Shown: positions 6,661 through 41,206 of the stretch, one piece after another | Layout: each line of letters starts with the position of its first letter | Numbering within the stretch: the first letter of the stretch is position 1 | Source of the DNA: a phage | DNA: 45,917 bases | Reading direction: 5' to 3' (one strand) | Assembly: GCA_014750165.1 (NCBI GenBank) | Contig: GCA_014750165.1_4319.1 | Notes under the pieces: model-generated | What the model saw: the letters and a program-made list of their open reading frames with translations, nothing else | Database searches by the model: none | Told to the model about the DNA's origin: nothing | Translations under genes and position numbers: made by a program

Positions 6661-7416
6661 ATGTTAAGTCCAAAGTTTGAAAATCAGTTGCAAAGTCTTT
6701 TCCCAGGCGAGATTGTGACTCTAATCCAGGTTGACGGAACCTCCTTTGGCTCTCTCGTTTATTCGTTCCATAATGAGAACATTTCATACACGCCAGAAGA
6801 GATCATGCTTGCCCAAATGAATGGCGAGCCACTGCCAGAGAAAACGATTACATTCCGTGGTGAAGAGTACGGCCCAAGACCTTTCGGCATCTCTGGCATC
6901 AATATGACTTCTGATGGCAAGGCAAACAAAGTTACGCTAACTGTATCAAACGTAGACCAGAGGATTAGCGCCTTGATTCGAACATACAACGGACTTGTTA
7001 AAGCTAAGGTTACCATATGGATTACTACGCGAGATAACATCAATGAAGACGGGAGTATTGCTGATGGAGATTATCGCAAATTCGTTTACTTCATTGAGCG
7101 ACCTAAGCAGGTTGATTACAAAACTGCGTCATTTGAGCTTAGTAGCCCGATGGATATGGATGGCATTTACATACCCGCACGGCTTGTTCAGTCTGTTTGT
7201 TATTGGGCGTCAAGGGGTTGGTATCGTAGCGGTAATGGATGCGACTACGCTGGTAATCGTTATTTTGACAAAGACGACAACCCGGTCAGTGACCCTTCTC
7301 TAGATTTCTGTGCGGGCACTGTTAACAGTTGCAAGATTAGATTCGGCGAGAATAATCAGCTTTCATTTGGTGGATGCGCAGCAGCAAGCCTTCAAGCCAA
7401 AGCGAATCAATCATAG
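6661..7416 (+). CDS. minor tail protein (lambda gpL-like)
   Basis: ATG 6661 follows GGAG. Has LTVSN and a C-terminal Cys cluster (CYW..C..C..C) as in gpL. Its stop TAG is part of the repeat box. Confidence 0.85.
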   Translation: MLSPKFENQLQSLFPGEIVTLIQVDGTSFGSLVYSFHNENISYTPEEIMLAQMNGEPLPEKTITFRGEEYGPRPFGISGINMTSDGKANKVTLTVSNVDQRISALIRTYNGLVKAKVTIWITTRDNINEDGSIADGDYRKFVYFIERPKQVDYKTASFELSSPMDMDGIYIPARLVQSVCYWASRGWYRSGNGCDYAGNRYFDKDDNPVSDPSLDFCAGTVNSCKIRFGENNQLSFGGCAAASLQAKANQS

Positions 7417-7470
7417 CACTTTTTGTTAAGAGGAAGGCGCAGGAATGCGCTATCCTCTAATCTCTTAAAC
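7413..7470 (+). promoter_or_regulatory. degenerate box cassette (T-spacer variant)
   Basis: ATAGCACTTTTTGTTAAG, then a long GAGGA..GCGC/GCGC..TCCTC hairpin and a weak TATCCT hexamer at the 22-nt spacing. Confidence 0.4.
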
Positions 7471-7482
7471 TGGAGATTAAAA

Positions 7483-7968
7483 ATGAACTGGAATGAAATT
7501 TTCGAATACAGAGATGGCAAGATTTATTGGAAAGTTAGCCCTGGCAGGAGGGCTAAGGTTGGTTCGGAAGCTGGATCAAATCAAATAAAAGGGTATAGAT
7601 TTGTGAAATTTCACGGAGTTTTATATATGACACACAGGGTTATTTGGGAGATGCATAACTGTGAAATACCGCATGGAATGGAGGTTGACCATTTAAATCA
7701 CATTAGGGACGATAACAGGATAGAGAATTTAAGAGTTGTTACAAAGTCAATTAATCAGAGGAATGCATCTAAAAGAATTGATAATAAAAGCGGTTTTACA
7801 GGCGTTTCTTGGTATCCCAAATATTCAAAGTGGAATGCTTACGCGACAGTAAATTCCAAGAGGTTTAATCTTGGTTACTTTGAATCAAAGCAAGATGCCT
7901 ATGTGGCTGTTAAAAAATTTAGGTCCATAAATGATTTTCATAAAAACCATGGAGTTGATTTATGTTAA
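7483..7968 (+). CDS. HNH homing endonuclease with AP2-like DNA-binding domain (copy 1)
   Basis: ATG 7483 follows GGAG. Contains HRVIWE..EVDHLNHIRDDNRIENLR (HNH) followed by GVSWYPKYSKWNAY (AP2-like). Inserted between the tail genes L and K. Confidence 0.85.
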   Translation: MNWNEIFEYRDGKIYWKVSPGRRAKVGSEAGSNQIKGYRFVKFHGVLYMTHRVIWEMHNCEIPHGMEVDHLNHIRDDNRIENLRVVTKSINQRNASKRIDNKSGFTGVSWYPKYSKWNAYATVNSKRFNLGYFESKQDAYVAVKKFRSINDFHKNHGVDLC

Positions 7969-12772: not shown

Positions 12773-13733
12773 AGTAGAAGTTTGGAATAAATGGAAGTGC
12801 CATTGATATATTTGTGTCAAAAGGAAACTGAGCGCCTGTCTGAGTTGAGTAGTTACCTATTACAGATCCAGGAACAGCCCTAACGGAGCCACCAGACATA
12901 CAAACTCCCTTGTATCGTAAGTTGTTATACCCTCCGGTAACTCTAGTCGTAGCGCCGCACCTAAGTAGCGGGAAGAAACCACCATTTATTGACTGATATC
13001 CATTGCTTATTTGTATAAATCCACCAAGAACGAATGGTCGTCTAACGCTTGAAAAAACAATCTGACCAGAACTATTTGACATTGTGAGCCCTGGTCCTGC
13101 TGGTGGCGGTTCATTCCTGAATATCACTAACTGAACGTAAGTGCTTGCCGCCACGTCATCTATGCCACCATAGTTTACATCACGGCACCATATTGTACTA
13201 CCATCACTCTCCAGCGACACATTTGGGTTATCCCACTTACCAAATGGTATTCCGCTAACCGGTAGCGATGCTGCCCCGTTAACCTGTATTCCTCCAACCC
13301 ATGCTGCTGACATTAGTCTCGAGTTGCTTGATATGGCAAGGAAATCAGTTGAGTTCTCAACGAGTATGCCTGGACTTGATGAAGATGAAGCCGGTAGTAT
13401 CTCAAAGCAATTACCAGCAAAGTCAATTATTCTACCATTAGCACCATTGAAGTTGCTGAGCGTTATCCTGCCAGTTCCGTCATTTACCTTTTGAAACCCG
13501 TTCATGTAATAAACTTCGGGTATAACATCGTAAGCGTCAACGTGGACTGCCTTCGTTGGTAGGCAGAAAGCCGTAGAACCAGGTGACATTGTCAATCCAA
13601 AATCCCACGATATTGCTGGTGTTGAAAGTCCATTGGTATTTATTGATCCAGTCACAGCAGGTGCCCTTAATCCTGCCGTGATTTCCATCGCTGGTCTTCC
13701 GTCATTGAGGTCAATCAATATACCCTGCGGCAT
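12771..13733 (-). CDS. hypothetical Gly/Ser/Asn-rich protein, translationally coupled to the cor-like gene
   Basis: ATG 13733 overlaps the upstream stop (TAATG), and the AAGGAG RBS lies inside the cor-like 3' end. 320 aa with no motif I can name. Confidence 0.6.
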   Translation of the reverse strand: MPQGILIDLNDGRPAMEITAGLRAPAVTGSINTNGLSTPAISWDFGLTMSPGSTAFCLPTKAVHVDAYDVIPEVYYMNGFQKVNDGTGRITLSNFNGANGRIIDFAGNCFEILPASSSSSPGILVENSTDFLAISSNSRLMSAAWVGGIQVNGAASLPVSGIPFGKWDNPNVSLESDGSTIWCRDVNYGGIDDVAASTYVQLVIFRNEPPPAGPGLTMSNSSGQIVFSSVRRPFVLGGFIQISNGYQSINGGFFPLLRCGATTRVTGGYNNLRYKGVCMSGGSVRAVPGSVIGNYSTQTGAQFPFDTNISMALPFIPNFY

Positions 13734-13978
13734 TATTTCCACTCCTTACTGCCGTGATCTGCAACAGAACCGCCGTAACCTCCGCCAGCTTTACTTTCAA
13801 TGCCAGCGTATCGAATATCAACCTCACCAGCAGGAACAACTACACCGCCTTTCCACTTAGCTACGCACACGCCGTTTGCTTGCGTTGCACACCAACCGTC
13901 CGGTCGAGGACCAGAAGAACAACCAACTGCCATGATTACTGCCGCTGCGATGATTGCTGATTTGATTAAGTTAGTCAT
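13733..13978 (-). CDS. cor: Cor-like superinfection-exclusion lipoprotein (putative)
   Basis: 81 aa with a signal peptide and lipobox (IMAVG-C). Size and its location next to the J gene match cor of T1/phi80/N15-type phages. Confidence 0.55.
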
Positions 13979-13997
13979 TTTGTATTCCTTATTAAGT

Positions 13998-14064
13998 GCG
14001 TTTCGTTTCGATGGAGTAATAGTATCGCATCCTTGCGATCAGTGTTTAGCAATTAGTGCTATTC
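13998..14064 (-). promoter_or_regulatory. box/-10/leader cassette
   Basis: Minus strand reads AATAGCACTAATTGCTAAAC, 22 nt (ATCGCA..TGCGAT hairpin), TACTAT, then CCATCGAAACGAAACGC. Confidence 0.6.
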
Positions 14065-14696: not shown

Positions 14697-14744
14697 AGCT
14701 AGACCAGAACCATCAAATAAAGACCAGATAACTATTTTTAAATC

Positions 14745-14810
14745 CTCGTTAGTTTAAGTGCGGCGATTATACCGCACAGAATTTATTGTTCTTTAGCAAT
14801 TCGTGCTATT
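14745..14810 (-). promoter_or_regulatory. box/-10/leader cassette
   Basis: Minus strand reads AATAGCACGAATTGCTAAAG, 22 nt (GTGCGG..CCGCAC hairpin), then TATAAT (14771..14766). Confidence 0.6.
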
Positions 14811-15453
14811 TCTTTTCCAGCAGCAGCTTGATGTCAATGCCGAGATTATTCTCAATCAATCCGGTCAGCGCATCATTCTTTTCTTTAAGGGCGAAGCATT
14901 GGGCTTCATATTTAAATCTCTCCTCCATCTCATCCGATCGACTAACCCAACATTGTCTAGCCTCACAAGCCAGCATATCGAGCTTTTCATCGGTATTCTT
15001 ATCCATGAGTAAAATCTCATTTATTCTTTGCTCTGCAACAATTCGCTGGCTCAGGTGTGCATTTTGCGCATTAGCCACACCAAGCATCATTCGAGCCTCT
15101 TTTAACTCATCAATGCTTACCATCTGGCTGATTACTTCTGCTTGCTTTTTAACTAATGCCTCCAGCTCATGAAGTCGACGGATTACTTTGTGTCGAAGCA
15201 CGACACTGTAGCCAGTGATTAGCGTTTCAGTGAGTTCCTTGTTGAGTAAAATCTCAGATGTATAGCCTCGATTGTCTGTAAGTAGTTGATAATCATCATG
15301 CCCCAAATCTGGGGCATCGTTATAATGTAACAATTCATTGATCATTTCCTTTGTGTCGCGAACGACGTGATCATGACGTTTGCCGGTTAACTCTGCGATT
15401 TCCTTTGTGCTCATCATGGTTTTTGGTTGTTCTTTGTACGCTTTAATGTTCAT
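14806..15453 (-). CDS. Rha-family phage regulatory protein
   Basis: STKEIAELTGKRHDHVVRDTKEMI matches the Rha N-terminal domain pattern. ATG 15453 preferred over the track start 15534. The stop TAG lies inside the box. Confidence 0.75.
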   Translation of the reverse strand: MNIKAYKEQPKTMMSTKEIAELTGKRHDHVVRDTKEMINELLHYNDAPDLGHDDYQLLTDNRGYTSEILLNKELTETLITGYSVVLRHKVIRRLHELEALVKKQAEVISQMVSIDELKEARMMLGVANAQNAHLSQRIVAEQRINEILLMDKNTDEKLDMLACEARQCWVSRSDEMEERFKYEAQCFALKEKNDALTGLIENNLGIDIKLLLEKK

Positions 15454-15519
15454 TTTAATCTCTCTATATGTTTTGACTTCGAAAATTTCGTATTCAAGCA
15501 GCACCATTGCCGCCATGAG

Positions 15520-15568
15520 CCTAAATATACCCAAAGATACCCAGTTGTCTTTAGCAAATCGTGCTATT
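15520..15568 (-). promoter_or_regulatory. box/-10 cassette
   Basis: Minus strand reads AATAGCACGATTTGCTAAAG, 22 nt, then TATATT (15529..15524). Confidence 0.55.
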
Positions 15569-16446: not shown

Positions 16447-17412
16447 ATGAGATTTAAGGTTTTTACTCGAGAGGAACTAAGCAACGAGGCTTACCACTCA
16501 GAGACTGAACACATCTCCGGCAGCTCACTTGTTGAGATTATCCAGGGCTCACCAGCTAAGTGGAAATTCAAACAACGTAACAATGATAGCAAGGCTCTTA
16601 AGTTTGGCACACTAAGCCACACGATGATTCTCGAGCAAGATGTATTCGACAAGGAGTATCTTCGAGCTACAGATCTTGATGCGATTGAAGGATTAATTAC
16701 AAGTCAGACCGGATTGGCCTCAGCACTTAAAAAAGTTGGTGTAGCTGGCACGTCCGGTAAGGGGTATAGCGAGCTAGTAGAGATGATGCATCGCTCTGGT
16801 GAGGATTGGCCTGTTAAGTGGCTAATTGAGCAGCAGGAGAGCGCTCAGGCGCTCGTGGAGGGTAAAGAGCTAGTTAGTGCAGCGGACTATGACAAAGTGG
16901 TAGCGATGCGTGAGGTTCTTTGCAACATTCCAGCATATGATGCAATCGTGAACAGCGAGACGGCGCAGAAAGAGCTATCAATCTTCGGTGAGATTCTAGG
17001 TGTTGGCGTTAAGATTCGAATCGACCATGTTGATGTTGTTGATGGAGTCGTTCGGATCACAGATTATAAAACTACCGCAGACGCTAGCCCGGAAGGATTT
17101 GGTAAGTCGGCTTTTAATCACGGATACCTTGCAAAAATGGCGCTTCAGCGCGACCTGTTTGTGAAGGCATTCAACGAGAAGAGAAAGGTTATTGTAGGAT
17201 TGCTGGCGCAGGAGAAGGTAGAGCCATATTTACCAATGCTGTACACCTTGACGGACGAACAGCTACGAATTGGTCGTCTCCAGTATCTTGAGGCGCTCGC
17301 CACTTACAAGAAGTGCAAGGAGCTAGATATCTGGCCTGGATATTCGAACGGCATTACAGAGCAAGAATTGATGATTCCTGAGTGGGCGTTAAAACAATAT
17401 AAAGAAATCTAA
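16447..17412 (+). CDS. PD-(D/E)XK exonuclease (RecE/YqaJ-like)
   Basis: IRIDHVD...RITDYKT matches a D..D/E-x-K nuclease core. Adjacent to an annealase and SSB. Confidence 0.7.
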   Translation: MRFKVFTREELSNEAYHSETEHISGSSLVEIIQGSPAKWKFKQRNNDSKALKFGTLSHTMILEQDVFDKEYLRATDLDAIEGLITSQTGLASALKKVGVAGTSGKGYSELVEMMHRSGEDWPVKWLIEQQESAQALVEGKELVSAADYDKVVAMREVLCNIPAYDAIVNSETAQKELSIFGEILGVGVKIRIDHVDVVDGVVRITDYKTTADASPEGFGKSAFNHGYLAKMALQRDLFVKAFNEKRKVIVGLLAQEKVEPYLPMLYTLTDEQLRIGRLQYLEALATYKKCKELDIWPGYSNGITEQELMIPEWALKQYKEI

Positions 17413-17479
17413 ATAGCACGAATTGCCAAAACAAAGCGGGATGACTTAGGTATAGTTATCCCATCAACAACGAACGAGG
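17413..17479 (+). promoter_or_regulatory. box/-10/leader cassette
   Basis: ATAGCACGAATTGCCAAA, 22 nt (GGGAT..ATCCC hairpin), TATAGT (17451-17456), then CCATCAACAACGAACGAGG. Confidence 0.6.
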
Positions 17480-17485
17480 TTAAAG

Positions 17486-18136
17486 ATGCAAATTTCAGAA
17501 TCATGCAAATCAATTTTAAACGCGCTTCACACCGCTAAATCGCTATTTGCTAAGGCTGAGAAGTCTAAGCAGAACTCACACTTAAAGAACAAGTACGCCA
17601 CCTTAGAAGACGTGCTAGCGGCCGTTGAGCCAGGCTTAGATGAGTGTGGCTTGGTTATGTTCCAGAGCGTGCTTGATGATGAACAAACCAACCGTATGAA
17701 GGTTGAGACAAAACTGTTTCATGCTGAATCTGGAGAGTGGGTTAGCTTCTTGATGATAGTCCCAATCAGTAAGAATGATGCTCAAGGTTACGGATCTGCG
17801 CTTACATACGCTCGTCGCTACGGAATCACAGCAGCCTTAGGCCTTAGCCAGGCAGATGATGATGGCAATCTGGCAGCCAAGGGTGTTAAAGACTTTAAGC
17901 GAGAACTTGAGAAGTGTAATACGCTCGATGAGCTTCGTAACGTTTGGAAGGATGCTAAGCAATCACTTGATGCGGCAGGATGGAAGGTTTTCGAGCCTCA
18001 TATTATCGAGCGAAAAGCAGAGATTGAAGCAAACGCAGCAACTGGCTTCAACCCAGCAACACCAAAGAGAGTCGCAGAAAAAAGTAGTCCTGAAGAAAAG
18101 ATTGAAGTAGAATCACAACAAATCGACACATTCTAA
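17486..18136 (+). CDS. Erf-like single-strand annealing protein
   Basis: KNKYATLEDVL...GYGSALTYARRYGITAALGL fits the ERF-family pattern. Confidence 0.75.
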   Translation: MQISESCKSILNALHTAKSLFAKAEKSKQNSHLKNKYATLEDVLAAVEPGLDECGLVMFQSVLDDEQTNRMKVETKLFHAESGEWVSFLMIVPISKNDAQGYGSALTYARRYGITAALGLSQADDDGNLAAKGVKDFKRELEKCNTLDELRNVWKDAKQSLDAAGWKVFEPHIIERKAEIEANAATGFNPATPKRVAEKSSPEEKIEVESQQIDTF

Positions 18137-21238: not shown

Positions 21239-21261
21239 TGCGTAAAGTCTCCATTTGTAAA

Positions 21262-21292
21262 ATAGCACGAATTGCTAAGTTGGATTGTAGCA
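21262..21292 (-). promoter_or_regulatory. extended -10 promoter with an inverted orphan box at the predicted transcript start
   Basis: Minus strand reads TGcTACAAT (-10 at 21289..21284). The box (21262-21279) is in the opposite orientation to the gene and starts about 7 nt downstream of the hexamer. Confidence 0.45.
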
Positions 21293-21301
21293 TCTTTCAG
21301 G

Positions 21302-21327
21302 TATAAAAAAACCTCCCGAAGGAGGTT
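21302..21327 (-). terminator. intrinsic terminator after the primase gene
   Basis: Minus strand reads AACCTCC-TTCG-GGAGGTT followed by T8. Confidence 0.8.
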
Positions 21328-25370: not shown

Positions 25371-25577
25371 ATGAAATTAATGAAATTGAAACCTATCGAT
25401 ATCCGAGTTGGTGATTATATATATAGTGGATATACAGGAAAAAAGAAATGGCGAAGAGTATCTGAAATAATTGTTCAATCAGCATATAGGTATACATTAA
25501 TTATGAATTCGTGGAACTTATCAGCTGGTAGTTGTTGTGAATTTTTAGTAAAGGGTGTTCGTAACAATACTTTTTAA
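25371..25577 (+). CDS. hypothetical protein
   Basis: 68-aa ORF after the cassette leader and an RBS. Confidence 0.6.
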   Translation: MKLMKLKPIDIRVGDYIYSGYTGKKKWRRVSEIIVQSAYRYTLIMNSWNLSAGSCCEFLVKGVRNNTF

Positions 25578-25580
25578 TTA

Positions 25581-25645
25581 ATAGCACGAATTGCTAAAGA
25601 CTAATCGGTGAGGTGGTGTATTATCACCACATCGAAACGAAACGC
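25581..25645 (+). promoter_or_regulatory. box/-10/leader cassette
   Basis: ATAGCACGAATTGCTAAA, 22 nt, TATTAT (25619-25624) in the loop of GTGGTG..CACCAC, then ACATCGAAACGAAACGC. Confidence 0.6.
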
Positions 25646-25660
25646 AGAGAGATAAACAAA

Positions 25661-25855
25661 ATGGCTACTATCTACACTGGTAAATTCTACGAATCACGCA
25701 AAACCGGTTACGAATATGAATTAGTAATCACCCCTGATGGTTATGTTCTTGACGATGGAGATGGTTACGCATTTGATGTTAGCCCAACTTACAAAGATGA
25801 TTTAGAAACTGTTAAAAACGCATTTGGCGAAAAATTTGACGAGGTATCAGAATAA
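25661..25855 (+). CDS. hypothetical protein
   Basis: ATG 25661 follows the leader. The track start 25613 lies inside the cassette. Confidence 0.6.
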   Translation: MATIYTGKFYESRKTGYEYELVITPDGYVLDDGDGYAFDVSPTYKDDLETVKNAFGEKFDEVSE

Positions 25856-27920: not shown

Positions 27921-27985
27921 TAGCGCTTTTTGTTAAAACGATACCCGCGAAAGCGGGTATTATTGTTTTATCGAAACGGCAGGGG
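27919..27985 (+). promoter_or_regulatory. box/-10/leader cassette (T-spacer variant)
   Basis: AATAGCGCTTTTTGTTAAAA, 22 nt (ATACCCGC-GAAA-GCGGGTAT hairpin), TATTAT (27958-27963), then TATCGAAACGG. Confidence 0.55.
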
Positions 27986-28002
27986 GATTGAAATGAATTG
28001 GC

Positions 28003-28485
28003 ATGATTTTTTTATACTATAAGGATGGAAAGGTTTTCTGGAGAGATCCGCACTGCACGAGATTGAAGCCAGGTGATGAGGCTGGTAGTAGGCACCATAG
28101 GGGTTATTGGTATATTCGTAGATATGACAAAACAATGTCAAGGCACCGAATCGTATGGGAGATGCACAACGGAACAATACCAGACGGTATGGAGATAGAT
28201 CATATAAATCACGTGCCTGGTGATGACAGAATTGAAAACCTAAGAATGGTCACAAGAAGGCAAAACAATCAAAACAAAAAATTAAATGAAAGAAATACAA
28301 GCGGACACGTCGGGGTTAGCTGGAACAAGAAGACAAACAAATGGAGAGCAATGATAGGCATAAGGGGAGAGGACGGAAAGAGGAAAACTTTATACGTTTA
28401 TTATGGTGATTCTTTCGATGATGCGGTATCAGCAAGAAAGAAAGCAGAGGCTGAGCACTCGTTTCATGAAAATCACGGTAAATAG
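28003..28485 (+). CDS. HNH homing endonuclease with AP2-like domain (copy 2)
   Basis: HRIVWE..EIDHINHVPGDDRIENLR followed by GVSWNKKTNKWRA. The RBS-backed ATG at 27993 is out of frame by one across a T7 run (28007-28013). Confidence 0.8.
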   Translation: MIFLYYKDGKVFWRDPHCTRLKPGDEAGSRHHRGYWYIRRYDKTMSRHRIVWEMHNGTIPDGMEIDHINHVPGDDRIENLRMVTRRQNNQNKKLNERNTSGHVGVSWNKKTNKWRAMIGIRGEDGKRKTLYVYYGDSFDDAVSARKKAEAEHSFHENHGK

Positions 28486-28544
28486 CACTTTTTGCCTAAC
28501 TCATGCCGTAGAAATGCGGCATAATCACCAAATCGAAACGAGAT
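28480..28544 (+). promoter_or_regulatory. box/-10/leader cassette (T-spacer variant)
   Basis: AAATAGCACTTTTTGCCTAA, 22 nt (ATGCCG..CGGCAT hairpin), CATAAT (28520-28525), then AAATCGAAACGAGA. Confidence 0.55.
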
Positions 28545-28555
28545 GAGGAATTGTA

Positions 28556-29029
28556 ATGATTTATGTATTTGATATCGATGGAACTATAGCTAATAATGAG
28601 CATAGAAGCCACCTCTTGCCATCCAGTGACCTTCACTTGACTTCAAGTTGGAAGGATTACAATAAAGCCTGTTCCGGAGACTCACCAATAATTCCAATGA
28701 TAAAAATGATGAATTCTTTAGCTGAGTCATCTCAAGTTTACATAATGACCTCAAGAAGTGATGAAGTTGAATGGAGAACGCTTCAGTGGCTTCATGATAA
28801 TGATGTTGAGTATGATTCGATATACATGAGAAGTCGACATGACAACCGAAAAGATTACAAAATAAAAGAGGAATGGCTTACTGAAATCAGTGGTGGCGAT
28901 AAAAGCAATGTGGTTATTTTTGAAGATAACCCGCAAGTAATCAAGCACTTAAGGAGCTTCGGATATACTGTAATGTCAGTTTGCGAATATGAAGACCTAC
29001 CTAAAGACTGCGAATCTCACGGAGAATGA
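28556..29029 (+). CDS. HAD-family phosphatase (polynucleotide 3'-phosphatase / nucleotidase-like)
   Basis: N-terminal VFDIDGT motif I; 157 aa. Confidence 0.65.
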   Translation: MIYVFDIDGTIANNEHRSHLLPSSDLHLTSSWKDYNKACSGDSPIIPMIKMMNSLAESSQVYIMTSRSDEVEWRTLQWLHDNDVEYDSIYMRSRHDNRKDYKIKEEWLTEISGGDKSNVVIFEDNPQVIKHLRSFGYTVMSVCEYEDLPKDCESHGE

Positions 29030-29031: not shown

Positions 29032-29586
29032 ATGACTAAATTATTTATCCTTAATGGCCCAGCTGGAGTTGGCAAGGACACTATAGCCGATATCATGGTT
29101 GAGACTGGTGTCGCCAAAGAAAAGGTATCATTCAAGTCACCAATGTTTAACGTTGTAAAAGGAATGCTATCAAGCGATGAATTTGATGGATTCATCAAGA
29201 ATTACGACAATAGAGACTATAAGGAATCACCTCATGGATTTCTTAGCGGTATGACAGTTCGTGAATTTATGATTTGGATTAGCGAGTCTGTAATGAAGCC
29301 AGTCTTTGGTGATGATGTTTTCGGTAAAAGGCTAGCACAGTCACTTGGTGATGGTTGCTACATTTGCGCTGACGGTGGGTTTGCTAGCGAGATTAAGCCA
29401 CTGATCGACACTGGTGTTGAGGTAACGTTAATCAGGTTGCATAGGGAAGGGTACACATTTTATGGCGATAGTCGCTCATACATTCACGGTGTGTGTGCAA
29501 GAGAGATTGATGTTCATGTTGTTGATGGTGATATTAATGGAACATCAGCATTGGTAAGGCACGTAATAAATAGCACGAATTGCTAA
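29032..29586 (+). CDS. P-loop (d)NMP kinase-like protein
   Basis: NGPAGVGKDT P-loop. ATG 29032 lies 7 nt after GGAG (track start 29026). The C-terminus is box-encoded NSTNC. Confidence 0.65.
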   Translation: MTKLFILNGPAGVGKDTIADIMVETGVAKEKVSFKSPMFNVVKGMLSSDEFDGFIKNYDNRDYKESPHGFLSGMTVREFMIWISESVMKPVFGDDVFGKRLAQSLGDGCYICADGGFASEIKPLIDTGVEVTLIRLHREGYTFYGDSRSYIHGVCAREIDVHVVDGDINGTSALVRHVINSTNC

Positions 29587-29632
29587 AGATAATATTAAAA
29601 ACTGGGTTATCATTAACACATCGAAACGAGAT
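29569..29632 (+). promoter_or_regulatory. box/-10/leader cassette
   Basis: AATAGCACGAATTGCTAAA, 22 nt, TATCAT (29608-29613), then ACATCGAAACGAGA. Confidence 0.6.
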
Positions 29633-29654
29633 GAACCAAACGAGGAAAAACAAA

Positions 29655-29831
29655 ATGACTAAAATGATTTACTGCACCAAGAACAACTCCAAGACGCTTC
29701 CATTTACAGTTAACCAGCCGTATAGCGCAGAGTACCAGGGCGATGGATACTACAAGATTTATGGCGACGATATGACGCACATCTTAGCGCCGATTGATGG
29801 TTCGTTAGTTGAATTTATTGTCGCTGACTAG
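29655..29831 (+). CDS. hypothetical protein
   Basis: ATG 29655 follows GAGGA. The track start 29580 lies inside the box. Confidence 0.55.
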   Translation: MTKMIYCTKNNSKTLPFTVNQPYSAEYQGDGYYKIYGDDMTHILAPIDGSLVEFIVAD

Positions 29832-31382: not shown

Positions 31383-32966
31383 TCACCCCAGCAGTCGTGG
31401 ATTAATGTAAACTTTATCACCAATCAGGCAAGTATAGTTTTTCTCATCAAGCATTGGCAGTAAGTGATCTTTAATCTTCGTCATTACTCCAGCCTGAGCC
31501 TCGAATGGCTTAACCTTGCGAGCAGCTTCATACAATGAACGAATACCAACTACGCCCTTCCCGTTTTTCCCTTGCTTGATCAGGATATCAATCAGCTTAT
31601 TCATCTCGGCATTGTCGCCAGCGTGACCAGCTGCGCTGGCAGATGACAGGTAAGTCTTGCTTAGTTCCTGGAACATGATTACAGCTTCTTGCATGGTATC
31701 AAGTTCAATCTCTCTGGATTTCTGCGGACTCCCACCGTTAGGGTTGAACCAGTTACGAACAGCATGAAGAACGGCTGCAATCCTGATGGCCTGTTTATCG
31801 AACTTGCCCAGGGCACCACGTAACATTGTGTGTGAATACTTCCCGCCATCAGCAAGGTGAGGTTCCATTTCTTGGCGCGCTCGGTTGAGGTACTTCATCG
31901 CTGAGTTGCTTACTGTCAGCTTAACATCTTGCTCATTCATTATCTCATGAACTAAGCGGAAGTAATCAGCCTTTAGTCCACCATCAATTGGCTCGTAAGT
32001 TGAGTCTCCATTCTCATCAACAAATACACGCTCGCCCAGGAATGATTTTTCACGTACAAGCAGAAAACGCTCAGATACACCGATACCACGCGCACCGGCA
32101 TTCATGATTGCATTGATTGTTTCGTCTTGCGCAATTACAGAGATGCAACCCAAAGCAACGAAGCTCATGTTGTTCTCTGCGTTAGCACGCGCAATAGATA
32201 CGTTACCCGCATCCCATGCTTTAAGCACTAGTTCGCTGTTCGTTTTCTTTGAGCCATCACCATAGGTCATGCCAAGCAGTGAGTTCACGCTCGTTGCTTC
32301 ATCCGAGATTACAGCAAAGTTACCCTGACGGTTGTTTATTCGCGCAAGACCTTCCGGCGTGGTATCGGACACGGGGAAAACGATATCGCATAGCTTCTCG
32401 AGCTTCTCCTCTAACTCCTCTTTCTCCTCAAAAAGTGAGGCCATCTCTGATGGTGACTTTTCCTGTTTCATCTCTTTTGATAATGCAGACAGCTTTGCCA
32501 TAATCTTTTTACGCTCACGCTTTCGCACTTCATTCAGCCGCTCAGTCTCAGCAATCATTGGAGCAATTGAAAGTGAGTTAATTGCTGATTTACCTGTCGA
32601 TGGCGGCTGGCTTGTCACGACATAAAGCGAAGTTGGCTGCTGAGTTCCGTGATACTCAACAGTGAATCGACCAAGCATTGCAGCGGAAATACACCCCAGG
32701 AAGTGCATATATGCGGACGACTCAGGAAACTGAACAGAACGAGCAATATTGGCTGACAGCTTACCAACAACATCAATATCATTGCCTAGTGAGATTACAG
32801 GGTACTTGTCATTAGCCGCATCAATCTCTACAGGTGCCTTCCAGAATGATTGAGACTGGCGATAGCCATTGGCATTAATAGCCACGCGCAGGGGTGGGAG
32901 GTTGTCTGCGGCTGCAATTGCCATAACCTGTTCAACAGATAGCTTATCTTCGTTGAAATCAAACAT
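31383..32966 (-). CDS. DUF3987/YfjI-like putative replication ATPase
   Basis: 527 aa with a P-loop-like SQPPSTGKSA. The overall layout is recalled from DUF3987 primase-associated proteins and has not been checked against a profile. Confidence 0.5.
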   Translation of the reverse strand: MFDFNEDKLSVEQVMAIAAADNLPPLRVAINANGYRQSQSFWKAPVEIDAANDKYPVISLGNDIDVVGKLSANIARSVQFPESSAYMHFLGCISAAMLGRFTVEYHGTQQPTSLYVVTSQPPSTGKSAINSLSIAPMIAETERLNEVRKRERKKIMAKLSALSKEMKQEKSPSEMASLFEEKEELEEKLEKLCDIVFPVSDTTPEGLARINNRQGNFAVISDEATSVNSLLGMTYGDGSKKTNSELVLKAWDAGNVSIARANAENNMSFVALGCISVIAQDETINAIMNAGARGIGVSERFLLVREKSFLGERVFVDENGDSTYEPIDGGLKADYFRLVHEIMNEQDVKLTVSNSAMKYLNRARQEMEPHLADGGKYSHTMLRGALGKFDKQAIRIAAVLHAVRNWFNPNGGSPQKSREIELDTMQEAVIMFQELSKTYLSSASAAGHAGDNAEMNKLIDILIKQGKNGKGVVGIRSLYEAARKVKPFEAQAGVMTKIKDHLLPMLDEKNYTCLIGDKVYINPRLLG

Positions 32967-32969
32967 TAC

Positions 32970-33040
32970 TTCTCTCCGTATTGTTTCTGAGCGGCCATTA
33001 TATCAACGACCGCTTATAATTCATTATCAATTTGTGCTAT
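32970..33040 (-). promoter_or_regulatory. box/-10 cassette (variant box)
   Basis: Minus strand reads ATAGCACAAATTGATAA, 22 nt, TATAAT (33002..32997), then CTCAGAAACAATACGGAGAG. Confidence 0.55.
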
Positions 33041-33424
33041 TTACAGGTATTGCGCCTCAAAAAAGTAAGTCTGGCAAAGCGTGTAAAAACCAACGTCCTC
33101 ACTGCGGTAAAGCTGCCAGGCGTTTCCATCCTCGTCATAAATGTATCCGGCATTTTGTCCAAGCCCAGCATGCATAGATACCTGGTAACGCTTTCCTTCT
33201 TTAAAGTCTTTTTTAACTCCTGACTTGTGGTTAACATTTGTGCAATAGAGAGTCTTTGTCTTAATGTATCTACCTAGCTCAGTAAGGTTCTGCCACTTGC
33301 CATTAACCTTGATTTGCTTTACACCATCCTTATCTCTAGCTTTATACAATACGTTATTGTTGCTAATCCAGTTCTTTGTGGTTTTGTTCCATCCGGCAGT
33401 TATCTTGCACTGATTGATAGTCAT
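33041..33424 (-). CDS. hypothetical protein
   Basis: ATG 33424 follows GAGAG (track start is GTG 33448); 127 aa. Confidence 0.55.
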   Translation of the reverse strand: MTINQCKITAGWNKTTKNWISNNNVLYKARDKDGVKQIKVNGKWQNLTELGRYIKTKTLYCTNVNHKSGVKKDFKEGKRYQVSMHAGLGQNAGYIYDEDGNAWQLYRSEDVGFYTLCQTYFFEAQYL

Positions 33425-33585
33425 TTTTTTACTCTCTTCGTTGTCCACATAAATTTGTTTTGTACTGATTTGCGCACTATTCGCACAGCAATCTTATCTG
33501 TCTTTTGTACAAGTCCGTAAATCTTGCCGTCAAGCGACGCGCGGTACACCGCCTCTTCCATCGCGTCGTAAAAGTTGTCGAACAT
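33421..33585 (-). CDS. hypothetical 54-aa protein
   Basis: ATG 33585 lies right after the cassette leader plus GGGAG. Its stop overlaps the next start (ATGA). Below the ORF-track cutoff. Confidence 0.45.
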   Translation of the reverse strand: MFDNFYDAMEEAVYRASLDGKIYGLVQKTDKIAVRIVRKSVQNKFMWTTKRVKK

Positions 33586-33589
33586 TTCT

Positions 33590-33655
33590 CATCTCCCGTT
33601 TCGATGGAAAGATAATACCGCATCCTTGCGATTTCGTTTTAGCAATTCGTGCTGT
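33590..33655 (-). promoter_or_regulatory. box/-10/leader cassette
   Basis: Minus strand reads ACAGCACGAATTGCTAAAA, 22 nt (TCGCA..TGCG hairpin), TATTAT (33617..33612), then CCATCGAAACGGGAG. Confidence 0.6.
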
Positions 33656-33803
33656 TGCGCGCCCTTTCTATCGCCTTGAGCATAATTTCGTGACTTTCCA
33701 GTAAATCCTCTCGGAACCAATCCCCGCAAGGCCAACCATTTCCGCTGTAAGCTGCGATGGTGCAAAGATCGTAATAGTTAATATCTGATGGTAGTAGCAT
33801 CAT
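33639..33803 (-). CDS. hypothetical 54-aa protein ending in NSTNC
   Basis: ATGA overlap with the upstream gene at 33803. Reads through the box, so the C-terminus is ..RARNSTNC. Below the ORF-track cutoff. Confidence 0.5.
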   Translation of the reverse strand: MMLLPSDINYYDLCTIAAYSGNGWPCGDWFREDLLESHEIMLKAIERARNSTNC

Positions 33804-34535: not shown

Positions 34536-34696
34536 GATTCACACCCCCAATCCCCACAACAGAAATCTTCATCCTCTGACTGGAATTGCTTAGCCAAATC
34601 AATATCCAACTTTCCGCGGACAACAATTTCGGTGTAATCTTCGTTAAGTCCGATCAGCGCGCATTCGTGGCGTAACTCGTCTTTATCAATCTTCAT
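34520..34696 (-). CDS. hypothetical 58-aa protein with Cys-rich C-terminus
   Basis: ATG 34696 follows the cassette leader plus GAGGAG. Ends ..FCCGDWGCESCVPF. Its last 16 nt overlap the HNH start. Confidence 0.45.
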   Translation of the reverse strand: MKIDKDELRHECALIGLNEDYTEIVVRGKLDIDLAKQFQSEDEDFCCGDWGCESCVPF

Positions 34697-34699
34697 ATC

Positions 34700-34768
34700 T
34701 ATCTCCTCGTTTTGATGAGTTAACTATATCCTCCATGACCCCCAATGTCTTTGGCAAAAAGTGCTATT
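34700..34768 (-). promoter_or_regulatory. box/-10/leader cassette (T-spacer variant)
   Basis: Minus strand reads AATAGCACTTTTTGCCAAAG, 23 nt, TATAGT (34728..34723), then CTCATCAAAACGAGGAG. Confidence 0.55.
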
Positions 34769-35907: not shown

Positions 35908-35988
35908 TTGCGGTACAGCGAAGAAGATGTGGAGAGGGCGATTGAGTTCTACCGGAAAGCTAAATCACTACTGAATGGTGAATATTAA
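35908..35988 (+). CDS. possible 26-aa ORF (TTG start)
   Basis: Protein-like sequence RYSEEDVERAIEFYRKAKSLLNGEY. Its stop overlaps the next ATG (TAATG). The start is uncertain. Confidence 0.3.
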   Translation: MRYSEEDVERAIEFYRKAKSLLNGEY

Positions 35989-36215
35989 TGCTTATAAAAT
36001 GCGTGTATGCAAGGCAAGCCAATCACCACAACCTTTCAGTTGTAAATGGTGGGATATACTCGGCAAAGCCAATCACTCGCTTTAATGGCTCATACTACAT
36101 CAAGGTTGATGGCAATGAGTACATGGTGAAGACGATAGGTGAAGCTCTTATGATAAAAAGCCTTGGCGTCATAATGGCTAAATTCGAAATCTTTCACAAT
36201 AGCACTAATTGCTAA
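35988..36215 (+). CDS. hypothetical protein ending in NSTNC
   Basis: 75-aa ORF whose C-terminus is encoded by the box. Confidence 0.55.
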   Translation: MLIKCVYARQANHHNLSVVNGGIYSAKPITRFNGSYYIKVDGNEYMVKTIGEALMIKSLGVIMAKFEIFHNSTNC

Positions 36216-36263
36216 ACCCGCTCCGGCAGGTTTTGTTATAGTTGGTTCACACCAAACGAGAGG
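36198..36263 (+). promoter_or_regulatory. box/-10/leader cassette
   Basis: AATAGCACTAATTGCTAAA, 22 nt, TATAGT (36237-36242), then CACACCAAACGAGAGG. Confidence 0.6.
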
Positions 36264-36271
36264 AAGCAAAG

Positions 36272-36463
36272 ATGATTACAATTAACCTATCAGAGGAAAT
36301 GGCTGCCGACCTTCTTGATTCACTAAGCCTGGTTAAAATTCGATACGGAACTTACCACAGAAGCGAATCAGTAAAGGAAGTGGTAAAGCAAGTTAAGCAG
36401 CATGTCGTAGCGGCCAAAATTGAATTGCAGAACACCCCGTACGATTTTAATAAAGGTGAATAA
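36272..36463 (+). CDS. hypothetical protein (MITINLSE paralog 1)
   Basis: ATG 36272 follows GAGGAAG. Confidence 0.55.
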   Translation: MITINLSEEMAADLLDSLSLVKIRYGTYHRSESVKEVVKQVKQHVVAAKIELQNTPYDFNKGE

Positions 36464-36701: not shown

Positions 36702-36835
36702 TTTACATCCATACTTACTACACTGGGAAGTTTAATAGCGTTAAGCATTCCAGTGTTCACGATAGCTACGAGAGCGCAAAGGCCCAATGGTTGGTTCTTG
36801 GTGGTGATATCAATTCATATAGAGTCGCTGAATAG
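36698..36835 (+). CDS. hypothetical 45-aa protein
   Basis: ATGA overlap at its start, and its stop TAG lies inside the box. Below the ORF-track cutoff. Confidence 0.45.
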   Translation: MIYIHTYYTGKFNSVKHSSVHDSYESAKAQWLVLGGDINSYRVAE

Positions 36836-36897
36836 CACGAATTGCTAAAACAGTATTGGGGTAATTTGGTATAGTTACCCCATCGAAACGAACGAGG
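36831..36897 (+). promoter_or_regulatory. box/-10/leader cassette
   Basis: AATAGCACGAATTGCTAAAA, 22 nt, TATAGT (36870-36875) in the loop of GGGGTAA..TTACCCC, then CATCGAAACGAACGAGG. Confidence 0.6.
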
Positions 36898-36905
36898 AAT
36901 CAGAA

Positions 36906-37118
36906 ATGAAAATTGAAATTATCGACGTGGACTACAGACCAGAGGTAGACGTACTGACTCTTGGTGAGTGTGGATTTGAAGTTGGCGACGTAGTTGAAGT
37001 GTCAGGTCACTACGTTGATGGCAACCTTTTAATCCAGGCTATCCGTGGTACTGAGTTCGTGAGTGTAGGAAATGAAGTAAGCGCAAGCGAGCATGAATAT
37101 AAGGTGGTTGAGGAATGA
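36906..37118 (+). CDS. hypothetical protein
   Basis: 70-aa ORF after the cassette. Confidence 0.55.
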   Translation: MKIEIIDVDYRPEVDVLTLGECGFEVGDVVEVSGHYVDGNLLIQAIRGTEFVSVGNEVSASEHEYKVVEE

Positions 37119-37778: not shown

Positions 37779-37970
37779 ATGTGGATTAAGTGCAGTGTTC
37801 GGATGCCTGAGCATTTCAGTTATGTTATCATTACAGATGGCGAGCATGTCGAGGTTAAATGGTGGAATGGTGACAAATGGGATTGTTGGGCGGATTGTTG
37901 GGTGGGTAACTCGAATATCTGTAGCGACGATGTTACCCACTGGATGCCGCTACCAGTAGCCCCTAAATAG
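37779..37970 (+). CDS. hypothetical Trp-rich protein
   Basis: 63-aa ORF after AGGAGAGGA. The stop TAG lies inside the box. Confidence 0.55.
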   Translation: MWIKCSVRMPEHFSYVIITDGEHVEVKWWNGDKWDCWADCWVGNSNICSDDVTHWMPLPVAPK

Positions 37971-38032
37971 CAAGAATTGCTAAATGGAGTCGCCACGGAT
38001 GGCATACAATAACCACATCAACACAACGAGAG
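37965..38032 (+). promoter_or_regulatory. box/-10/leader cassette
   Basis: AAATAGCAAGAATTGCTAAA, 22 nt (GCCA-CGGA-TGGC hairpin), TACAAT (38005-38010), then CACATCAACACAACGAGAG. Confidence 0.55.
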
Positions 38033-38040
38033 ATTTAGAA

Positions 38041-38280
38041 ATGTTCGGACTAAATGAAGCGATGTTCAATGCTGTAAAGCGACAGGCTAAAAAGCTCAAC
38101 GATAAGTATGAGTCACTAAGCAAGCTGGACCGCAAGAGTGATAAACTAGTTGCCGGTATCATCACTGAGATTTGGCAGCCTGTTTCCACAGTGATTAGCA
38201 GGGATCGATTTGTGTGGGTAGCTGGTTACTTGCGAGGTCGAGTTGGTCATGATGAGAATGGGAACAGCCTTTATGAGTAA
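38041..38280 (+). CDS. hypothetical protein
   Basis: ATG 38041 follows the leader. The track start 37984 lies inside the cassette. Confidence 0.55.
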   Translation: MFGLNEAMFNAVKRQAKKLNDKYESLSKLDRKSDKLVAGIITEIWQPVSTVISRDRFVWVAGYLRGRVGHDENGNSLYE

Positions 38281-39046: not shown

Positions 39047-39553
39047 ATGAGCAAAGCAGCATTAAAGATGGGTGAGGGAAACTTCAAGGCGCTCTACAAC
39101 AAGAAGTATGGCGACATTGCCATGGTGGCAATCAACCGCAAGTACACGCCAGAAGAGGTTTTAGATTTCGCCGTTCGATATTTCTCCTGGGCGGAGAGTG
39201 AGGCAATCAAAGCAATTGAGACAGCAGCATTTCAGGGCGTGGTTAGCGAGAGCTTAGTGCACAAGCCGAGAGTGTTCACATTAACCGGGCTGGCGCTATT
39301 TATGGGTGTTAACATCAATAGATTCGCTCGCTGGCGCACTGAAGCTGGATACTCCGATGTGATGGAATTCATTGATAACGTAATCTACGAGCAGAAATAT
39401 CAGCTTGGCGTTGCAGGTATTATCAACTCTACCATCGTTGGTAAAGAGCTTGGAATTGATAAGCCTCAGGAAATCACCATTAGCAACAACTCTACAGCTA
39501 ACGACGTTGATAGCATGAAGGAAGCTCTGGAATCTGTGATTAGCAAGTTATAA
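39047..39553 (+). CDS. terminase small subunit
   Basis: 168 aa directly upstream of the large subunit. The N-terminal half is HTH-like (LTGLALFMGVNINRFARW). Confidence 0.75.
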   Translation: MSKAALKMGEGNFKALYNKKYGDIAMVAINRKYTPEEVLDFAVRYFSWAESEAIKAIETAAFQGVVSESLVHKPRVFTLTGLALFMGVNINRFARWRTEAGYSDVMEFIDNVIYEQKYQLGVAGIINSTIVGKELGIDKPQEITISNNSTANDVDSMKEALESVISKL

Positions 39554-39571
39554 CAATAAGAGGGTATAACA

Positions 39572-41143
39572 ATGAGTGATTTAATCGTGTGGGATGAACT
39601 TACATACGCAGAAAAGATGGCTATCAAGGCCATCTCTGAGCATAGTTTCGAGGGGTTCTTGCGGTGTTTCTTCCAGATAACGCAGGGTGAGAGATTTAAA
39701 ATGAATTGGCACGCGAAGTACCTTTGCCGCGTCATAGATGAGATTCTTGATGGTAAGAGAAAGGACACCATCATAAACATAGCTCCGGGATCTGCCAAAA
39801 CCGAACTGTTTAGCATCCACTTCCCTGTATATAGCATGATTAAGATTAAGAAGGTTAGAAATCTTAGTTTGTCTTTCTCTGATTCATTGGTGAAGCGCAA
39901 CTCAAAGCGTGTTCGTGACCTGATAAAGTCAAAGGAGTTCCAGGAGCTTTGGCCCTGCAAGTTTGGAACATGCAGGGATGACGAAATTCAAGTGCTGGAT
40001 GAGAATGGTAAAGTTAGGTTTGAGTCTATATCTAAGGCGATGGCGGGGCAGGTGACGGGAAGCAGGGGAGGCTACATGACTGACGATTATAGTGGTTGCA
40101 TAATGCTGGATGACCCACTAAAACCTGATGACGCGCTAAGTAATGTAAGAAGAGAGGCTGTCAACATGCTTCTCAAGAACACAATTCGTTCACGTCGAGC
40201 TAGCTCAGTAAAGGGAAAGGAAACGCCAATACTTGCCGTGCAGCAAAGACTTCATGTCCTGGACACTAGCCACTTCATGGAGTCAGGGCAGATGGGCATC
40301 AAGTTCGACGTAGTGAAAGTTCCAGCCATAGTCACGGAGGATTACGCCGACACGCTCCCTGATTGGATTAAGCAGCAATTTATTGATGATGTTCTTTCGT
40401 CACCATTTGTTGAGAGGGATGGGGTTAAGTATTACAGCTACTTCCCAGCAAAGGAATCAATAGAAGACTTGATGGCAATGCGGGATGCTGACCCTTATAC
40501 ATTCCTAAGTCAGTACGCTCAAGAACCAGTAGCACTTGGCGGCAATCTGATTAACGTGGATTGGTTCCAGCGCCTTAGCGATACATTCAGACCTCCCGCT
40601 AAGTATGATTATCGATTCATCACATGCGATACTGCGATGACCACAAAGAGTTATAGTGACTTCTCTGTACTTCAGTTGTGGGGATATAAGGATGCTAAGA
40701 TTTACCTGATAGACCAGCGCAGAGGTAAATTTGAAGCACCAGAGTTGGAGGCTGAACTACTGGACTTCGAGAAGAAATCAAGGGCAACCAGTCAGTCAGA
40801 TGGCATCCTCCGAAAGATCATCATCGAGAAGAAAGCGTCTGGTATCGGCCTGATTCAATCAGCTGGCAGGGTTATGCGAACACCGATAGAGTCATACGTA
40901 CCGGATAATGACAAGCTAACCAGGGTGATGAGTGCACTACCACAGATTAAGGCTGGTAACGTAGTTCTTCCAGAGTCATCGCCGTGGCTAAACGGATTGC
41001 TCACTGAGGTTGCGGCTTTTACGGCAGATGACTCGCATAAGCACGACGACCAAATTGACTGTCTAACAATGGCGGTAAACCTTGTACTTAACATCGCGGA
41101 TGATCCTAAGGCGAGACTAATGCGCATAGCAGGAATTAAATAG
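39572..41143 (+). CDS. terminase large subunit
   Basis: 523 aa. ATPase motifs (NIAPGSAKTE, IMLDDP) and a C-terminal nuclease region (..HDDQIDC). The stop TAG lies inside the box. Confidence 0.9.
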   Translation: MSDLIVWDELTYAEKMAIKAISEHSFEGFLRCFFQITQGERFKMNWHAKYLCRVIDEILDGKRKDTIINIAPGSAKTELFSIHFPVYSMIKIKKVRNLSLSFSDSLVKRNSKRVRDLIKSKEFQELWPCKFGTCRDDEIQVLDENGKVRFESISKAMAGQVTGSRGGYMTDDYSGCIMLDDPLKPDDALSNVRREAVNMLLKNTIRSRRASSVKGKETPILAVQQRLHVLDTSHFMESGQMGIKFDVVKVPAIVTEDYADTLPDWIKQQFIDDVLSSPFVERDGVKYYSYFPAKESIEDLMAMRDADPYTFLSQYAQEPVALGGNLINVDWFQRLSDTFRPPAKYDYRFITCDTAMTTKSYSDFSVLQLWGYKDAKIYLIDQRRGKFEAPELEAELLDFEKKSRATSQSDGILRKIIIEKKASGIGLIQSAGRVMRTPIESYVPDNDKLTRVMSALPQIKAGNVVLPESSPWLNGLLTEVAAFTADDSHKHDDQIDCLTMAVNLVLNIADDPKARLMRIAGIK

Positions 41144-41206
41144 CACGAATTGCTAAACTAAGTCGCCACGGATGGCGTATAGTTACTTCATCGAAACGAG
41201 AGGAGA
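41140..41206 (+). promoter_or_regulatory. box/-10/leader cassette
   Basis: ATAGCACGAATTGCTAAA, 22 nt (CGCCA-CGGA-TGGCG hairpin), TATAGT (41178-41183), then TCATCGAAACGAGAGGAG. Confidence 0.6.

Follow-up and report, generated by a model that had tools for sequence, protein, structure and literature searches.

A repeated 18-mer at gene ends of a T1-like coliphage as the probable front of a portable promoter-like module

The box, its published relatives and its copies in the window

The DNA analyzed here (the window) is a phage contig of 45,917 nucleotides (nt; NCBI GenBank assembly GCA_014750165.1, contig GCA_014750165.1_4319.1). It belongs to a T1-like coliphage of the Drexlerviridae, Braunvirinae, and is 86–89% identical, in mosaic pieces, to the Braunvirinae phages vB_EcoS-12210I (12210I), CEB_EC3a, SU57, JeanPiccard and 2725-N35. 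The window carries a repeated 18-mer, AATAGCACNAATTGCTAA (the box), in which many of its genes end. The box occurs 14 times at ≤2 mismatches, where shuffled sequences are expected to yield 0.02 occurrences, and the number of credible copies rises to 20 once a CTTTTTG variant (T-type) is allowed. G-, T- and A-type boxes are all represented in the window and its relatives. The consensus over 112 copies, collected from the window and the five relatives, is aAATAGCAC.aaTTGcTAAA, and matches a repeat described in phage TLS.

The box is a member of this published repeat of TLS and other T1-like phages. The 2024 re-annotation of TLS reports a 21-nt direct repeat, aaATAGCACnnnTTGnTAAAA, in 18 intergenic copies that are oriented along transcription and lie about 76 nt ahead of start codons; its subtypes are GAA, TTT and AAA, and it is also present in T1, Rtp and Rogue1 (PMC11447400). 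The authors describe TLS as virulent and list the function of the repeat as an open question, with a stoperator, an enhancer site or an UP element as guesses (PMC11447400). The box of the window agrees with the TLS repeat in sequence, G/T/A subtypes, co-orientation, a distance of about 75 nt to start codons and a number of about 20 copies per genome. By contrast, the TLS paper (PMC11447400) terms the repeats intergenic, and contains neither the stop-codon overlap and C-terminal tails, nor the 21-nt link to a -10 hexamer and the mosaic junctions described below. The repeat is unmentioned in the genome papers of Rogue1 and AHP24. As far as we found, the coding overlap of the box, its fixed promoter geometry and its resemblance to the promoter-early stem-loop (PeSL) of T4-like phages are apparently unpublished, even though the box itself is published. 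One whole copy of the unit that the box opens, used as a blastn query, matches at least 200 phage records from Escherichia, Klebsiella, Shigella, Yersinia and related hosts.

This unit, the module, spans about 75 nt and consists of the box, a 21-nt spacer that usually contains a hairpin, a -10 hexamer, a leader block CATCGAAACGA, a Shine-Dalgarno sequence and an ATG. The box copies of the window, with the open reading frames (ORFs) that meet them and one adjacent regulator gene (protein lengths in amino acids, aa), are listed by coordinate and strand.

2340..2420, plus strand: module 1; T-type box 2340-2357, -10 TATAGT 2379-2384, ATG 2418; behind the major tail gene and a terminator hairpin, and the sole co-directional box off the upstream stop (2305-2307)
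7412..7485, plus strand: module 2; box CATAGCACTTTTTGTTAA 7412-7429, whose TAG 7414-7416 stops the gpL-like gene; a strong hairpin follows, the -10 is degenerate, and the downstream gene is an HNH gene, 7483..7968
13976..14063, minus strand: module 3; box 14046-14063, read as NSTNC plus stop of the methyltransferase (TAA 14048..14046); -10 at 14019-14024; downstream gene 13733..13978
14733..14810, minus strand: module 4; box 14793-14810, whose TAG 14808..14806 stops Rha; -10 TATAAT 14766-14771; methyltransferase cassette downstream
15451..15568, minus strand: module 5; box 15551-15568, heading the leftward operon (Rha), no upstream gene
17412..17488, plus strand: module 6; box 17412-17429, with base 1 overlapped by the exoVIII TAA 17410-17412; -10 at 17451-17456; Erf-like gene downstream
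21261..21325, plus strand: orphan box 21261-21278, oriented against the genes on both sides
22308..22781, minus strand: 'transcriptional regulator' of 157 aa, conserved, starting 12 nt from box 22793
22793..22885, plus strand: module 8; box 22793-22810, heading the rightward helicase operon; the divergent gene of the Cro-like regulator starts 12 nt away
25289..25373, plus strand: module 9; box 25289-25306, whose TAG 25291-25293 stops VRR-NUC; -10 TATAGT 25328-25333; ATG 25371
25580..25663, plus strand: module 10; box 25580-25597; TAA of the upstream ORF 25575-25577; -10 25619-25624 within a stem; ATG 25661
27919..28005, plus strand: module 11; T-type box 27919-27936; TAA of an exonuclease gene 27918-27920, then the box TAG; terminator-like hairpin 27940-27961; HNH copy 2 downstream
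28481..28558, plus strand: module 12; T-type box 28481-28498, whose TAG 28483-28485 stops HNH copy 2; PNK and kinase-like cassette downstream
29569..29657, plus strand: module 13; box 29569-29586, read as NSTNC plus stop of the dNMP-kinase-like gene; -10 29608-29613; ATG 29655
32964..33041, minus strand: module 14; box 33024-33041, with base 1 overlapped by the upstream TAA 33043..33041; -10 TATAAT in a hairpin loop; helicase gene 31383..32966 downstream
33583..33656, minus strand: module 15; box 33639-33656, read as NSTNC plus stop of the 54-aa ORF 33639..33803
34694..34768, minus strand: module 16; T-type box 34751-34768, heading the leftward early operon
36198..36274, plus strand: module 17; box 36198-36215, read as NSTNC plus stop of the 75-aa ORF 35988..36215, whose 12210I orthologue stops at the box TAG
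36831..36908, plus strand: module 18; box 36831-36848, whose TAG 36833-36835 stops a 45-aa ORF; a stem encloses the -10
37966..38043, plus strand: module 19; box 37966-37983, whose TAG 37968-37970 stops ORF 37779..37970
41139..41216, plus strand: module 20; box 41139-41156, whose TAG 41141-41143 stops TerL; downstream accessory cassette 41214..41603, closed by a terminator at 41625-41641

Stop codons and C-termini supplied by the box

All three frames into every box copy were tabulated, and every coordinate cited in the first-pass annotation, which had read the box as coding sequence, proved correct. TAG at box position +2 stops the seven genes it had named (gpL-like, Rha, VRR-NUC, HNH copy 2, the 45-aa ORF, ORF 37779 and TerL). 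A second frame, AAT AGC ACN AAT TGC TAA, ends in the TAA at +15 and gives the terminus NSTNC to four proteins, namely the methyltransferase (14046..), the dNMP-kinase-like protein (..29586), ORF 35988..36215 and ORF 33639..33803. In four further genes the TAA falls within -5 to -1 of the box (ends 17412, 25577, 27920 and 33041). In total, 16 boxes have a co-directional gene upstream, and 15 of them contain or touch the stop of that gene; the box supplies 7 of the 13 TAG stops among the 72 curated genes of the window. The overlaps recur in the five relatives and in annotated T1 genes, and are therefore not sequencing errors.

Two stops are intrinsic to the box, TAG at +2 and TAA at +15, and genes that arrive in the third frame end in a TAA overlapping box base 1. 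Such a TAA at -2 is present in 11 of 48 junction families from six genomes, none of which reads through the box in the third frame. A stop in all three frames as an intrinsic feature of an extended box (TAAATAGC...) was considered and rejected, because T occupies position -2 in just 55 of the 112 copies. The phase of the box relative to the upstream ORFs shows no significant preference, either in the window (8:4:3, chi-square p=0.25) or over the 48 junction families (13:5:15, p=0.08). In T1, a box of the CTAATTG type (39975-39992) has an extra TAA at +8 that stops gene ST19; A-type boxes thus offer an additional stop in the TAG frame.

The first-pass annotation had proposed that unrelated genes captured their 3' ends from a recombination junction, a view that orthologues with the same C-termini and no adjacent box would contradict. 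Such orthologues exist for TerL, gpL and exoVIII. TerL ends in ...AGIK followed by the box TAG in the window, by TAA in box-less 12210I and by TAG in box-less JeanPiccard. The gpL sequence ...AKANQS is closed by the box TAG in the window and by TAA in two box-less relatives, and is retained in SU57 ahead of a different cassette, with a TAA fused to the box of that phage. ExoVIII ends in ...KQYKEI plus TAA in the window and in ...KQYREI plus TAA in box-less JeanPiccard. In these genes the overlap with the box is confined to the stop triplet and leaves the protein as it is, so the termini of the TAG and TAA classes are native and not imported. The last Ser codon of gpL is TCA, and not AGC or AGT, so that TCA-TAG merges with the box.

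What stands of the imported termini is the NSTNC tail of 4–5 residues, which is encoded by the box. Among homologues of the kinase-like protein, 21 close full-length ones end in (I/V)NSTNC, whereas the ten preceding residues vary freely. Single variants of the tail are NSTKC, NSTNY, NSTNR and DSTNC, as well as NSTFC where the box is T-type. Remoter homologues end in QNYIE, LKLGL or DDIPW, and in the two that were inspected the gene is followed by a terminator and no box. Because the tail is nearly invariant, the residues before it vary and box-less homologues are devoid of it, the tail is best read as promoter DNA translated into protein, with about four extra residues apparently held by selection on the DNA. 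The 75-aa ORF illustrates this further: it ends in ...AKFEIFHNSTNC in the window and in ...AKFEIVRK in 12210I, where a 1-nt indel just before the box shifts the gene to the TAG frame. This indel accounts for the difference, and a recombination origin of this NSTNC tail is not supported. The use of two box stops in two phages implies that the box closes whichever frame arrives. Many Drexlerviridae proteins bear a meaningless box-encoded tail (NSTNC or NSTFC), and a good share of the TAG stops in this family would be promoter sequence.

Architecture of the module and cassette exchange

The -10 hexamer is mostly TATAGT, TATAAT or TATTAT and is followed by about 5 bases and then by CATCGAAACGA, which places its CA at the position expected for a transcription start site; the Shine-Dalgarno sequence that precedes the ATG is purine-rich. 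The distance from the box end to the -10 is 21 nt in 87 of the 112 copies and 20–23 nt in 109. T1, which belongs to a different subfamily, has about 23 boxes, 15 of which show the 21-nt spacing. In the window, 19 of the 20 copies face a downstream gene (p=4e-5), and for 17 of these 19 co-oriented copies the start codon lies 71–90 nt away. Three copies (15568, 22793 and 34768, in modules 5, 8 and 16) stand in divergent regions at operon heads that have no upstream gene.

These features suggest that the box is the upstream block of a promoter-like but non-canonical unit. The box TTG is separated from the -10 by 22 nt, and not by 17, which is why a canonical sigma-70 scan of the window does not pick up the modules; overall, the scan yields fewer sites in the window than in shuffles (32 versus 43). 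The spacing rules out a canonical sigma-70 promoter. The box would span about -51 to -34 and contains an imperfect dyad, TAGCA-N5-TGCTA, centered near -42, a position where many activators sit. Other promoter classes were compared and rejected. The sigma-54 signature (GG-N10-GC, TGGCAC-N5-TTGC) differs from the box (TAGCAC-N3-TTGC), which has AG for GG and is 2 nt too short. MerR-type promoters have a 19–20-nt spacer with one conserved dyad, whereas the spacer is 22 nt here and its dyads differ between copies. An UP element is an A/T-only tract at -59 to -38; the location of the box overlaps partly, but the box has invariant G/C positions (GCAC, G, C). In the divergent region 34769-35340, the plus strand bears a strong sigma-70 promoter of canonical form at 35303-35330 (TTGATA-16-TATTAT, preceded by a TG); it is unlike the box modules and is possibly an immediate-early promoter.

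The spacers fold more stably than shuffled controls. Averaged over 105 unique sequences of spacer plus -10, z is -1.75, and over 25 unrelated spacer families with the -10 kept fixed it averages -2.5 (Wilcoxon p=1.5e-6). The stem has no constant register: it lies just ahead of the -10, encloses it, or forms a full terminator whose T-tract merges into the -10 (the hairpin at 27940-27961 is a terminator-like example). In the T1 record, three annotated rho-independent terminators are located within box-to-(-10) spacers. As the register is not fixed, a structural role is favored over a protein-binding dyad. An Rfam search returned no family apart from tRNA.

A candidate binder of the box might be the Cro/YdaS-type regulator encoded beside box 22793, as a dimeric helix-turn-helix protein would suit the imperfect dyad. 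The regulator matches PHROG 2856 and has homologues with Cro and YdaS Pfam domains. Its AlphaFold model (pLDDT 87) contains a Cro-type helix-turn-helix domain; the best structural hits were the Cro proteins of Xfaso 1 and N15 (target TM-score about 0.72 for each, E-values weak). A weak PHROG match of the regulator had raised the idea of a MerR-type promoter, which was dropped because the model resembles Cro and not MerR. A PDB sequence search with the regulator gave zero matches. The part of the protein C-terminal to the helix-turn-helix domain is conserved and has two invariant cysteines (C101 and C118).

The orphan box at 21261-21278 (plus strand) lies between the minus-strand primase gene (21326..22249) and a lateral tail fibre gene (start about 21238-21268), and is kept in all five relatives. 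Its -10-like TATAAA leads straight into a bidirectional terminator with the sequence AAAAAACCTCCCGAAGGAGGTT. The box might give rise to RNA antisense to the 3' end of the primase gene or, read as its reverse complement, might serve as an operator about 20 nt ahead of the tail-fibre start.

We further analyzed whether genes that meet at a box stay together in the relatives. Homology breakpoints against the five relatives are present at all 16 co-directional box junctions, although this test is biased by window size, and breakpoint density per nucleotide shows no clear difference between box and non-box junction windows. A junction test was therefore based on the adjacency, in each relative, of the upstream-gene end and the downstream-gene start. 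Adjacency is lost in 69 of 80 box comparisons and in 100 of 245 comparisons at other junctions over the whole window (Mann-Whitney p=5e-5), and in 54 of 65 versus 75 of 155 in the non-structural region (Mann-Whitney p=0.002).

Crossover positions were derived from three-way alignments. The methyltransferase cassette, between boxes 14810 and 14063, is missing in CEB_EC3a, where a single module switches partner, from left to right, in the box. The orf25371 cassette is absent from 12210I, where the partner changes in the box, and from SU57, where it changes in the CATCGAAACGA leader. Both 12210I and JeanPiccard lack the PNK and kinase cassette, and the switch again falls in the CATCGAAACGA leader. 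Switch points that differ by lineage for the same cassette are as predicted by exchange between paralogous modules. Not every event uses two boxes, as the flanks of the TerL-portal cassette share only a microhomology of about 9 nt (AATTAAA(T)AG). The earlier proposal of the box as a recombination junction is thus retained in modified form: junctions are mosaic and crossovers fall in the box or leader, but the box is not primarily a junction scar, and the whole module, rather than the box alone, is a recurrent crossover site. Candidates for carrying out the exchanges are encoded by the phage itself, namely an exonuclease VIII homologue, an Erf-like annealing protein and SSB.

Several genes of the cassettes have features of their own. 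The slot between TerL and portal (41143-41641) contains the gene of a 129-aa 'virion structural protein' (PHROG 14592), which has a box promoter and a terminator of its own; the same slot is occupied by a different gene in SU57, CEB_EC3a and 2725-N35, and by none in 12210I and JeanPiccard. Both HNH_3+AP2 homing-endonuclease genes (7412-7968 and 27919-28498) follow T-type (CTTTTTG) boxes and are missing at these sites from most relatives. The methyltransferase gene has ATA (14733-14735, minus strand) where its JeanPiccard orthologue starts with ATG, and its next in-frame start, GTG 14696, is located beyond the FDGSG motif; on this basis the enzyme may be poorly translated or inactive in this phage.

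Interpretation and comparison with known systems

We consider it likely that the box is the front of a portable promoter-like module, that abutting genes borrow its stops, and that the modules mark cassette swaps. T1-like phages would place this compact, portable transcription-unit boundary ahead of many genes. Transcription likely starts at the A of CATCGAAACGA, and, given the TTG-to-(-10) distance, the promoter is probably read with the help of a box-bound factor rather than through a plain sigma-70 -35 element. Transcripts that come in from upstream are probably attenuated or terminated at the spacer hairpin. In a genome with no spare DNA, each upstream gene would run up to the box; the box and the fused TAA would close any incoming frame, at no loss in two frames and with the gain of a passenger tail, (N)STNC, in the third. 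The roughly 20 copies per genome, which share box and leader, would offer short homologies for the deletion, insertion or swap of cassettes of one to three genes. The main cause of the shared gene ends is ordinary, namely a stop-rich promoter element abutted by tightly packed genes.

Several points weigh against this account. The 22-nt distance agrees with none of the known sigma-70 geometries, and the factor that would bind the box is hypothetical. The hairpin differs in position among copies, and most hairpins are devoid of a U-tract. The excess of broken synteny could come simply from inserted genes that bring a promoter with them, with no need for box-to-box recombination. The five relatives are non-independent samples, and the gene list of the window was curated by hand. 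A literature search for transcription start or termination data in any T1-like phage gave nothing usable, and we therefore infer promoter and terminator activity from the sequence.

It is improbable that the box is solely a recombination site or scar, from which genes took their 3' ends and in which any regulatory role is secondary. The clustering of breakpoints at boxes, the crossovers within them and a box-encoded tail common to four unrelated proteins agree with it, but a scar explains neither why the 21-nt spacing to the -10 and the co-orientation are kept from Braunvirinae to T1, nor why copies stand at operon heads with no upstream gene; in addition, crossovers in the leader block indicate that the box is not special as a crossover site, and TerL, gpL and exoVIII retain their native termini without it. 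The cassette turnover could also be a side effect, in which morons with their own box promoter enter by illegitimate recombination and selection trims the junctions, so that boxes are not substrates at all. The microhomology that flanks the TerL/portal cassette in place of two boxes, and the mosaicism of many non-box junctions (the 100 of 245 above), speak for such a course. We regard it as rather unlikely, given that several indels are exact box-to-box or module-to-module units and that the module remaining in the relative is chimeric, with a lineage-dependent partner switch inside a conserved block.

Two further explanations assign the box to a site of action other than a promoter, and both appear very improbable. 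A stoperator-like operator, on which a phage repressor would block elongating RNA polymerase as in mycobacteriophage L5, would account for the position at gene ends, the single orientation to transcription, the many copies and the stop-codon overlap. The possibility was raised by the TLS authors (PMC11447400), and a Cro-type helix-turn-helix protein is encoded beside one box. A roadblock, however, would not be expected to keep a fixed distance from a -10, the copies at operon heads would have no polymerase to stop, and Drexlerviridae are described as virulent (stated for TLS, PMC11447400). At the RNA level, box and hairpin could form a processing or stability element of the 3' untranslated region, with CATCGAAACGA as a processed 5' end and not a start site. 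This would agree with the significant excess of hairpins, with the overlap of translation stops and with the conservation of sequence 3' of the putative start, which is unusual for sigma-70 promoters; it leaves a near-consensus TATAAT-like hexamer at a fixed distance unexplained, and is at odds with modules 5, 8 and 16, which have no upstream gene, with the negative Rfam result and with the variable hairpin register.

If the promoter-like module is the correct description, the open question of the TLS authors on repeat function becomes testable through the fixed -10 distance, the missing -35, the hairpin and the cassette turnover. For phage engineering, the modules would represent natural, tolerated insertion points with a ready stop, promoter and leader.

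Activator-dependent phage promoters, such as those with the Mu Mor/C sites near -43.5 or the T4 MotA box at -30, resemble the module in having a good -10, no usable -35 and a conserved upstream element for a phage factor. The analogy is functional only: the sequences do not match, the MotA box is positioned differently, and homologues of Mor/C or MotA were not found. Lambdoid morons, reportedly described by Juhala et al. in 2000, are said to be self-contained accessory genes inserted between conserved genes with their own promoter and terminator. The unit at 41139-41641 between TerL and portal is similar to a moron, but morons are not known to share a common promoter sequence usable as portable homology. 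Stoperators, known from cluster A mycobacteriophages such as L5 (Brown et al. 1997, cited in PMC11447400), are, like the boxes, many short asymmetric sites in short intergenic gaps or over stops, with one orientation to transcription. They bind the repressor of a temperate phage and are not known to be tied to a -10 at a fixed distance, whereas the spacing of the box is rigid (21 nt) and the phage group is virulent.

The closest analogue of the T1-like module appears to be the PeSL, a composite promoter/terminator cassette that extends from an upstream stop codon to a Shine-Dalgarno sequence and ATG, with a stem-loop between an upstream hexamer and the -10, or over the -10 (PMC2839356, PMC4122927). 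PeSL copies recombine and thereby shuffle small accessory genes, and their promoter, terminator and mini-circle activities were shown experimentally (PMC2839356, PMC4122927), whereas the promoter and terminator roles of the module are read from its sequence. The two elements have no sequence similarity and come from different phage families, the module being found in siphoviruses. Moreover, PeSL promoters are strong and of canonical sigma-70 type, with an AT-rich region upstream, in contrast to the G/C-containing 18-mer of the module with its TTG 22 nt from the -10. The organization is nevertheless analogous. The module likewise runs from an upstream stop (at the 15 of 16 co-directional boxes) to a Shine-Dalgarno sequence and ATG, its stem-loop covers the -10 or separates it from the upstream element, and its copies flank small accessory genes whose cassette indels, on comparative evidence, leave chimeric units with varied crossover points. 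We tentatively raise the further possibility, about which we remain doubtful, that the box with its rigid 22-nt geometry defines a previously uncharacterised class of factor-dependent promoter, whose reader could be the conserved Cro-type regulator or some other protein of phage or host, and that the module is a universal cassette adaptor, used by the phage's RecE/Erf-type recombination system to shuffle accessory genes. Such a module would close every frame, attenuate incoming transcription and restart transcription, and would represent an independently evolved siphovirus counterpart of the PeSL.

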